From: Escherichia coli
GTDB taxonomy: Bacteria; Pseudomonadota; Gammaproteobacteria; Enterobacterales; Enterobacteriaceae
Strand: one strand, 5' to 3'
DNA: 64,000 nt
Assembly (NCBI RefSeq): GCF_003018255.1
Contig: NZ_CP027440.1
Under the pieces are notes generated by a model. It was given only the letters and a program-made list of their open reading frames with translations, had not been told where the DNA came from and did not search any database. This document shows, piece by piece, positions 28,101 to 29,418 of the stretch. Within the stretch, counting starts at the first letter, position 1, and every line of letters begins with the position of its first letter. The translations under genes were made by a program, and so were the position numbers.

Positions 28101-28950
28101 GCTCGACCGGCTGGAAAGTGAAATCCTGGCTGACCGGGTGAGTGAGGAAAGCCGCCGCTGGCTGGCATCGTGCGGCCTGACGGTGGAGCAGATACAAAAC
28201 CAGATGGACCCGGTGTACACGCCGGCGCGAAAAATCCACCTGTACCACTGCGACCATCGCGGCCTGCCGCTGGCGCTTGTCAGCACGGAAGGGGCAACAG
28301 AATGGTGCGCAGAATACGATGAATGGGGCAACCTGCTGAATGAAGAGAACCCGCACCAGCTGCAGCAGCTCATCCGCCTGCCGGGTCAGCAGTATGATGA
28401 GGAGTCCGGCCTCTATTACAACCGCCACCGCTATTATGACCCGCTGCAGGGGCGGTATATCACTCAGGATCCGATTGGGCTGAAGGGGGGATGGAATTTT
28501 TATCAGTATCCGTTGAATCCGGTATCTGGTTTCGATCCATTAGGGTTAAAAGTGTCTTTTCAGGGAGATGAAAGTACACAAAAAACTTTAAAAGAAGCAT
28601 ATAAAGCTGTAGCAGAAACAAAGTTTGGACATAAAATAACAGAAGAATTAGAGTCATCAGAGCATGAATATATATTTAGAGGATTAAGAAAAGGCATAAA
28701 CCAAACATGCTACGATGATACTGAATATAGTTTTTACATTGATATTGATAACGACCATAGCTCATGTGTATATCAAGGAAAAAACAAAGCATGTGCCATG
28801 AAACCCACTCTGTTGAGTGTGGTTCTTGCGCATGAAATGGGGCATGCAAAGGGAATGAAAGACGATGGAACTGACTCGATGGCTAATGTTGATAAATATG
28901 AAAACCCATTTCGTAAAGAGTTGGGCTTGCCAGCAAGAATGAAATATTAA
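24916..28950 (+). CDS. rhsA: Rhs-family YD-repeat protein body with a variable C-terminal HExxH (zincin-like) toxin tip; N-terminal region frameshifted
   Basis: 1344-aa ORF with many YD/RHS repeats (YRYDxxGR…), a conserved core ending at …[16 protein letters not shown] (DPxGL boundary motif), then an AT-rich roughly 134-aa tip containing [11 protein letters not shown]. Symbol given by position (yibF side) only. Confidence 0.8.
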
Positions 28951-29007
28951 ACATTTTTATATTGCTTTTGGGTATGTTTTTAATATATCACCAGTTTAGG
29001 AGATGGT

Positions 29008-29418
29008 ATGAAAGTATGTCTGTATTTTATTTCCGTATTTTTTTCATCTTGCTGTATAGCTGATGTTTTCCATTATAGGATGCCTTTTCGCATCCAAACA
29101 TATTCCCCTGTCACTAAAAGTAAAATTGAAAATTTTGCAATAAAAGATGGTGCACAAAAATTATTACAGATAAATCGTGAGAAGTTATTAATGTTACTGA
29201 ACAGGTCTAGTAATGAGTGTTACCATTTTGATGATAAAAATGTTAGGATTTATATTATTGATGGTAAAGACAGATATTATATTGATAAAAACGGGGTGGT
29301 GTCATATGGCGTTCAAGATAATGTCATATGCTCTAATAATAAAATTAATGAAGATTCCATAGAAAAAATTTTATTAGAAGGGAATATTGACTTTTGGAAA
29401 AAACTGAAAATTAAGTGA
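29008..29418 (+). CDS. Putative cognate immunity protein of the Rhs C-terminal toxin (hypothetical)
   Basis: 136-aa ORF 57 bp after the rhs stop, AT-rich, hydrophobic N-terminus (MKVCLYFISVFFSSCC); the usual position for Rhs immunity genes. Confidence 0.55.
   Translation: MKVCLYFISVFFSSCCIADVFHYRMPFRIQTYSPVTKSKIENFAIKDGAQKLLQINREKLLMLLNRSSNECYHFDDKNVRIYIIDGKDRYYIDKNGVVSYGVQDNVICSNNKINEDSIEKILLEGNIDFWKKLKIK

Follow-up and report, generated by a model that had tools for sequence, protein, structure and literature searches.

A predicted M91-type metallopeptidase tip and its probable exported immunity protein at a frameshifted rhsA locus of Escherichia coli

The 64,000 nucleotides of Escherichia coli DNA analysed in this work (contig NZ_CP027440.1 of assembly GCF_003018255.1; hereafter the window) contain an Rhs gene whose C-terminal end encodes a candidate toxin, and this toxin tip, together with the open reading frame (ORF) directly downstream, is our subject. 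The segment is the E. coli chromosome at the rhsA locus, an identification we make because the gene order runs selB, selA, yibF, the Rhs gene, yibH, yibI and mtlA. Our analysis reveals that the tip forms a genuine domain, which belongs to the M91 / Tox-HopH1 clade (NleD, HopH1, XopG) as a minimal zincin, and that the 136-amino acid (aa) ORF behind it encodes its predicted cognate immunity protein, a member of an uncatalogued family that Pfam, NCBIfam and PDB do not contain. The features of the locus are collected in Table 1.

Table 1 Features of the Rhs toxin end and of the module that follows it, in window coordinates
Feature	Coordinates	Strand	Basis
Rhs gene, rhsA locus (PAAR-type N-terminal region, YD-repeat core, C-terminal toxin tip)	24803..28950	+	between yibF and yibH
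(TGCCC)x3 run; the extra copy is a +5 frameshift that splits the N-terminal region from the Rhs core	24994..25008	+	alignment with intact allele
DPLGL, end of the Rhs-associated core, predicted autoproteolytic release site of the tip	28534..28548	+	read from sequence
Toxin tip, 133 aa, predicted minimal zincin endopeptidase, Peptidase_M91 / Tox-HopH1 clade	28549..28947	+	
H95-E96-M-G-H99, two zinc ligands and catalytic Glu (predicted), helix 89-100	28831..28845	+	invariant in 46/46 homologues; helix from model
E118-N119-P120, predicted third zinc ligand (Glu), helix 112-124, Tox-HopH1 '[DE]N' signature	28900..28908	+	conservation and model
R130-M-K-Y133, R-x-x-Y motif at the extreme C-terminus	28936..28947	+	R130 invariant, Y133 at least 90%
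Predicted cognate immunity gene, 136-aa exported protein, probably a lipoprotein (Cys15)	29008..29418	+	downstream synteny with tip homologues
Orphan C-terminal remnant of a Tlde1-like type VI secretion system (T6SS) toxin of L,D-transpeptidase fold, H-x15-SEGCI	29507..29782	+	Pfam and translation
Imm57-family immunity gene with signal peptide	29787..30308	+	Pfam Imm57 PF15596, E = 5e-44; RefSeq 'Imm57 family immunity protein'

The boundary between the conserved Rhs protein and its tip is sharp. In an intact allele (L021, 1380 aa), residues 1–1247 match the NCBIfam RHS_core model NF041261 at 2612 bits, and the TIGR03696 Rhs_assc_core domain ends at residue 1247. A switch to AT-rich composition coincides with the DPLGL boundary, as the guanine-cytosine (GC) content, 0.61–0.65 across the Rhs core, drops to 0.35 over the tip and to 0.30 over the downstream ORF. 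A first-pass annotation of the window, made from the sequence without database searches, had described an AT-rich turn after the conserved core end FDPLGL, and both the coordinates and the drop in GC agree with it. Cleavage after DPLGL is predicted from published Rhs structures (PMC8636562).

The tip begins with the AAA (Lys) codon at 28549 and ends with a Tyr codon at 28945..28947, ahead of a stop at 28948..28950. It counts 133 aa where about 134 had been estimated, and its HExxH motif, previously placed only approximately, is an HEMGH at exactly the position given. A bare HExxH would occur by chance in 133 aa about 1–2% of the time. A word-indexed protein search retrieved the tip alone, and the family surfaced in an exhaustive search, which returned homologues in 104 representative clusters at E ≤ 1e-3, the size of the family thus being at least 104 clusters; in many of these a DPxGL motif directly precedes the tip homologue. 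A contig scan with the pattern [AVI][IV]L[GA]HE[LM]GH proved too promiscuous, giving 600 candidates for one true locus. In an alignment of 46 tip sequences, H95, E96, H99, N119 and R130 are invariant and G98, G102, D105, G107, N113, E118, P120 and Y133 nearly so, with E118, P120 and Y133 each present in at least 90% of the sequences. The family consensus reads HExGHAxGxxDDGPGxMNNVNxNENPIRxELGxPxRTxY and often stands at the C-terminal end.

These positions place the tip in a known peptidase clade. The Pfam model Peptidase_M91 (PF14891) matches the window tip weakly (E = 9e-4, about 20 bits, model positions 6–113 and 155–176 of 176); scanned singly, 27 of the 46 homologues match at E ≤ 1e-3 and 41 at E ≤ 0.1, the best at 1e-8. 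The NCBIfam XopG model scores E = 0.17, and a Hafnia protein 61% identical to the tip is named 'M91 family zinc metallopeptidase' by NCBI. The profile comparison with Tox-MPTase/zincin families that had been suggested for the tip thus yielded a weak Peptidase_M91 match but nothing from the first group, as no Tox-MPTase Pfam family matches the window tip or any of the 46 homologues. PADLOC gave a single weak and unrelated match ('putative invertase', E = 0.0027), and sequence searches of PDB returned nothing significant outside the HExxH region. Zhang et al. 2012 define the Tox-HopH1 signature as HExxH plus [DE]N and list RHS and T6SS contexts for it, and M91 peptidases share with botulinum neurotoxin (BoNT) light chains an HExxH, a third-ligand Glu and an RxxY motif (PMC6367388). 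The tip has all three signatures: HExxH, E118-N119-P120 and R130-x-x-Y133. By analogy, E118 would bind zinc, and R130 and Y133 would stabilise the transition state. The original suggestion of a metallopeptidase-type toxin rather than a nuclease is thus supported. As a separate observation, a truncated tip relative from Kluyvera (P0011, 126 aa) has HKMGH in place of HEMGH, with loss of the catalytic Glu, and is probably a decaying orphan toxin fragment.

An AlphaFold2 model of the tip, computed on the family alignment, has a predicted local distance difference test (pLDDT) value of 96.7 and a predicted template modelling score (pTM) of 0.89. The HExxH motif lies on the helix formed by residues 89–100 and E118 on the following helix (residues 112–124), and the model has a BoNT-like minimal zincin fold. 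The nearest folds are BoNT light chains, GtgA, NleC and Wss1, all of them protein endopeptidases with extended substrate clefts, and no LAS, M23 or M15-type cell-wall peptidase is found among the top matches. This confidently modelled fold is closest to those of the botulinum light chains and GtgA.

The 136-aa ORF has an ATG start with AGGAG upstream, and its N-terminus reads MKVCLYFISVFFSSCC. It has no match in Pfam, NCBIfam, PADLOC or PDB, with nothing in Pfam even at E ≤ 10, and a word-indexed search recovers relatives in E. coli and E. albertii only. We nevertheless assign it as the predicted cognate immunity protein of the tip because its gene neighbourhood is conserved across loci, which is the decisive evidence. 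Homologues lie directly 3' of tip homologues in six other divergent loci (L011, L012, L015, L016, L017 and L028), which come from Salmonella, Rahnella, environmental metagenome-assembled genomes (MAGs) and metagenomes. In a ten-sequence phmmer test on the ORFs 3' of divergent tips, those of five loci were homologous to the window ORF: the downstream ORF scores 87 bits in a food metagenome (L011) where the tip is 59% identical, 41.5 bits in Rahnella selenatireducens (L012) where the tip is 45% identical, 21 bits in a MAG (L016), and 9.6 bits (E = 5e-4 in this test) in L015. The fifth is the read-through product P0033, which connects to L016 at 62 bits.

A profile of the immunity family retrieves 19 clusters. 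In a reciprocal test, one of these matches (P0118) proved to overlap by 4 bases with the Rhs gene in front of it, which has an M91-like tip and ends ...GHELGHATGDKDDGPKRMNNVDKNENPVRKGLGEPKRTQY; two others are orphans with no adjoining toxin. Orphan copies are usual for immunity genes. Tip and immunity identities co-vary across seven pairs (Spearman 0.61, p = 0.003, from non-independent pairs), and the immunity protein diverges faster than the tip in every pair compared. The assignment of the downstream ORF as the immunity gene, first proposed from its position, is therefore strengthened by both synteny and co-divergence. Tip and ORF occur together in 180 of 5426 complete E. coli genomes, at 99% identity or above and always on the chromosome. 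A single residue is invariant throughout the immunity family, R80 (precursor numbering) in the NVR-IYI strand. Two candidates were set aside. Imm57 was rejected as the immunity protein of the tip, since it is the product of a third gene and pairs with the Tlde1-like fragment, while the 136-aa ORF has no PF15596 match. A 149-aa ORF of E. albertii, considered as a distant immunity paralogue, was dropped as unsupported by BLASTP and phmmer.

Several rearranged loci involve the same gene family. A partial E. coli protein (P0008, 79 aa) fuses the core end ...DPLGL directly to a mature immunity homologue (ADMFHYGMPLRIQTH...), so that the toxin tip and the signal peptide are precisely deleted and the fusion falls at the signal-peptide end. 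In E. albertii (L003 4271..6417 and L006 1079..6339), a vgrG-type gene is immediately followed by an Rhs gene whose HExxH tip is a different one (HELAH...YENKEE, with a weak XopG match); next come that tip's own 149-aa exported partner and then an orphan copy, 67% identical, of the window immunity gene; the arrangement looks like a tip displacement with the old immunity gene left behind. On the food metagenome contig (L011, 399..2507), TseH, Imm58 and a further Rhs fragment accompanied by two small ORFs lie 5' of the M91 pair, forming a multi-module orphan array.

The N-termini of the immunity family suggest where the toxin acts. In all 12 that we examined, a Lys or Arg occurs among residues 1–7 and a strongly hydrophobic 12-mer comes next. 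The PROSITE lipobox rule (PS51257) selects five of these, namely the window protein (at Cys15), its E. albertii homologue, L016, L017 and P0120, and a sixth member (P0122) has a canonical L-A-A-C lipobox; other members look like signal-peptidase-I substrates (AFA|K, AWA|G). Two immunity subfamilies have conserved cysteine pairs, as expected of periplasmic proteins, and similar charged, hydrophobic N-termini are present on the products of the unrelated ORFs that follow three further M91-like tips (L010, L013 and the 149-aa ORF of E. albertii). Given this export signal, the target of the toxin is probably periplasmic, and the window immunity protein is probably lipid-anchored at Cys15.

A related pair has been studied in Salmonella Dublin. 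On Salmonella pathogenicity island 19 (SPI-19), Amaya et al. 2022 (PMC8867033) describe SED_RS06335, a PAAR-RHS-Peptidase_M91 protein, and SED_RS06340, a 110-aa protein with one predicted transmembrane helix. A mutant lacking both genes showed lower recovery after co-culture with the wild type, and recovery of a mutant lacking the effector alone was unaffected (PMC8867033). Using tblastn of plasmid records we found a Salmonella enterica contig, OX345625.1 (L028), whose tip is 62% identical to that of the window over all 133 residues (E = 2e-66) and ends ...PRMKY, and whose next ORF shares 49% identity with the window ORF over 85 residues (E = 5e-31) and has a hydrophobic N-terminus. The published knockout primer for the 3' end of SED_RS06335 matches this contig exactly, and the SED_RS06340 primer is one base off. 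Because both partners are homologous and the knockout primer matches exactly, the window pair is, as judged from sequence, the E. coli counterpart of an antibacterial effector/immunity module that has genetic support. Two metagenome DNA scans, one with the Salmonella primer and one with a degenerate version of it, returned no match.

The first-pass annotation had recognised nothing characterised in either protein. That view stands for the immunity family, which no domain library includes, but not for the pair, which matches that of Salmonella Dublin (62% and 49%), or for the tip, as RHS-linked HopH1-like toxins were catalogued in 2012. Relative to L028 (about 4600..4913), the S. Dublin immunity gene has a G-to-T change that appears to give TAA after ...IYIYEDNH, and a stop there reproduces the published 110-aa length. 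Other Salmonella immunity genes read on into ...EYFIDNKGVV, and the S. Dublin protein that was tested would thus lack the C-terminal third of the family domain.

In the window the PAAR-Rhs toxin is not encoded in one reading frame. A 5-bp (base pair) duplication splits the gene into two overlapping ORFs in different frames (24803..25141 and 24916..28950), and the extra TGCCC cuts off the first 60-odd residues from the remaining Rhs protein. When aligned, the window and JNE112863 each have TGCCC three times and the intact strain DETEC-S792 has it twice, and RefSeq labels the identical locus 'RHS element core protein, frameshifted'. In strain C1, whose gene RefSeq also annotates as frameshifted (4147 nt), the aligned segment has two copies, so the C1 lesion must lie elsewhere. 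Of ten alleles sampled, three are frameshifted (the window, JNE112863 and C1) and seven are intact. Because the duplication breaks the frame, the window strain is probably unable to load the toxin on a spike or to deliver it, while its immunity gene is still intact. The different lesions of the window and of C1 suggest repeated inactivation, or slippage-prone switching, of this Rhs gene.

Taken together, we read the segment as a polymorphic Rhs toxin end whose M91 tip acts in the periplasm and is neutralised by a cognate exported immunity protein, and we put the probability of this reading at roughly 0.75. Where the gene is intact, the PAAR-Rhs protein would ride the T6SS spike, its PAAR-type N-terminus mounted on VgrG, and the Rhs shell would enclose the tip until self-cleavage after DPLGL frees it (PMC8636562). 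After injection into a Gram-negative neighbour, the tip may work in the periplasm as a sequence-specific zinc endopeptidase, by analogy with VgrG2b/Tpe1. Its substrate would be one or a few envelope proteins, such as a lipoprotein or a cell-wall-maintenance protein; this is the weakest step of the proposal, and we favour an envelope protein over peptidoglycan because the nearest folds are all protein endopeptidases. Siblings would be protected by the 136-aa immunity protein, exported, probably lipid-anchored and, by analogy with PA0261/Tpi1, binding the toxin one-to-one. More tentatively, the Rhs M91 tips as a group could form a bacterium-targeting branch of the NleD/botulinum-like clade, periplasmic and specific for envelope proteins, with lipoprotein immunity in which R80 may plug the active site; we hold this wider idea to be possible, though somewhat short of an even chance.

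Several points weigh against the periplasmic effector/immunity reading. The rhs allele in the window is a pseudogene. No vgrG or other T6SS gene adjoins the rhs locus in the window, and delivery is assumed; an Rhs gene of E. albertii with a related tip lies directly 3' of a gene with VgrG-type domains. The Pfam score of the window tip, at about 20 bits, is marginal, and we infer its zinc binding, proteolysis, substrate and compartment alike. The competition effect in Salmonella is small, at 2.4-fold (PMC8867033). The characterised M91 enzyme NleD cuts host mitogen-activated protein (MAP) kinases, and a 2026 Salmonella survey that counts Tox-HopH1 among the commonest T6SS effectors classes it as anti-eukaryotic. 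Finally, when the mature immunity protein, a 30-residue linker and the tip were modelled with AlphaFold as a single fused chain, the domains were confident (the immunity part alpha+beta, pLDDT 83–95) and the pTM was 0.55, so the model supports no toxin–immunity binding mode.

Of the alternatives, one keeps the compartment and changes the substrate. Amaya et al. predicted that the Salmonella homologue is a peptidoglycan hydrolase cutting peptide stems or cross-links; a periplasmic immunity protein would suit such an enzyme, the effector is listed as peptidoglycan-targeting by both Amaya 2022 and a 2025 review, and the window locus itself carries the remnant of a true cell-wall toxin of the Tlde1 type. 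The published assignment is, on the other hand, a prediction with no assay, and the fold comparison described above points to protein endopeptidases rather than to cell-wall peptidases, which makes hydrolysis of peptidoglycan an unlikely activity for the tip.

Equally, the module in the window strain could be decaying junk with no present function, as might be suspected from the frameshifts that disrupt the rhs gene here and in two or more further genomes, and from degenerate relatives such as the Kluyvera remnant with HKMGH. We think this improbable: the tip and immunity frames are intact and 99–100% identical across the 180 genomes, full-length alleles make up seven of the ten sampled, and an intact immunity gene would be useful by itself against toxin-carrying neighbours.

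The tip might instead be an NleD-like anti-eukaryotic effector directed at host signalling proteins such as MAP kinases, in which case the downstream ORF would not be an immunity gene. The studied members of the M91 clade are indeed type III secretion system (T3SS) effectors that work in the host cytosol, and the 2026 Salmonella survey ties anti-eukaryotic Tox-HopH1 to the subtype i1 T6SS. Such an account has little to say, however, about a small exported protein whose linkage to the tip is tight and widespread and which diverges with it, about orphan immunity copies that persist without the toxin, about a Salmonella homologue pair that acts as effector and immunity between bacteria, or about a module that environmental MAGs and Rahnella also carry. 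An immunity protein that is exported and co-evolves with the tip argues for a bacterial primary target, contrary to the anti-eukaryotic classification, and we consider a purely eukaryotic target quite improbable, although the tip could have a dual, trans-kingdom role. It is least likely of all that the tip acts in the cytoplasm and that the hydrophobic N-terminus of the immunity protein is a mere membrane anchor or an annotation artefact: although many Rhs tips are cytoplasmic nucleases or ADP-ribosyltransferases, and Amaya et al. predict one transmembrane helix and no signal peptide for SED_RS06340, a Lys or Arg before the hydrophobic segment means that even an uncleaved anchor would place the domain in the periplasm, and the lipobox cysteines in six members, the cysteine pairs in the subfamilies, and the core–immunity fusion of P0008, which marks a domain boundary at the signal-peptide end, all speak for export.

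Beyond the immunity gene lies a second pair (29507..30308), an orphan module left by an earlier tip and separate from the M91 pair. Its first ORF matches the Pfam model Tlde1_dom (PF10908) at E = 1.3e-3, over model positions 66–107 of 120 only, and the second belongs to Imm57, a family that Zhang et al. 2012 paired with Tox-LD-peptidase. Between the Imm57 gene and yibH, the window is very AT-rich (30309..30764, GC 0.24–0.36) and carries no annotated gene. The first-pass annotation had passed over this module, as it had the frameshift of the allele and the export signal of the immunity protein.

The system is of a known kind: HopH1/M91 toxins linked to RHS proteins have been catalogued since 2012, and experiments on the Salmonella pair date from 2022. 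Our analysis defines the immunity family, infers a periplasmic site of action, ties the pair to its Salmonella counterpart and shows that the window allele is a pseudogene. About 3% of complete E. coli genomes carry the module, with the tip concealed in a gene labelled 'RHS element core protein' and the immunity gene labelled 'hypothetical'; names can now be given to both, and 14 sequences are at hand to define the immunity family. The export signal points to the periplasm first, at odds with the recent anti-eukaryotic classification of Tox-HopH1 effectors, and the pair offers a tractable E. coli model for the question of what Rhs-M91 tips cut. If these tips do form a bacterium-targeting branch, identifying their substrate would expose a new vulnerability in the Gram-negative envelope and offer a plausible account of what this protease clade did originally.

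Among known systems, the tip resembles the Tox-HopH1 / Peptidase_M91 proteins (NleD, HopH1, XopG) in its HExxH, [DE]N and R-x-x-Y motifs and its BoNT-like zincin core. The members studied so far are T3SS effectors that cut host kinases in eukaryotic cells and have no immunity partner, whereas the window tip is only 133 aa long, sits at the end of an Rhs protein and has a dedicated exported immunity protein; Zhang et al. 2012 list no immunity family for Tox-HopH1. The BoNT and tetanus light chains (M27) and GtgA/NleC are 11–17% identical to the tip in sequence, and the tip, at about one third of their size, is without their large substrate-gripping insertions. In its proposed mode of action, the pair is most like the VgrG2b C-terminal metallopeptidase (Tpe1) and its immunity protein PA0261 (Tpi1) (Wood et al. 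2019, PMC6899460). There, a T6SS-delivered HExxH metallopeptidase is toxic only in the periplasm, and the immunity protein faces the periplasm, needs its signal peptide and is a lipoprotein in Enterobacteriaceae (PMC6899460). The likeness ends with the mode of action, as the toxin of that system is fused to VgrG rather than to Rhs, and Pfam scans of the tip and immunity families found no family in common with it. Amaya et al. call the VgrG2b domain M91, a term that occurs 0 times in the text of Wood et al. E. coli Rhs-CT1 (Ma et al. 2017, summarised in PMC6730261) is likewise a zincin-tipped PAAR-Rhs protein, with antibacterial activity that depends on a T6SS; that tip is Tox-MPTase4, a zincin family different from the one found here. 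Closest of all is SED_RS06335/SED_RS06340, which has the same architecture as the window pair and shares both of its families; it is located on SPI-19 of Salmonella, whereas the window pair occupies the E. coli rhsA site, where the rhs allele is frameshifted.

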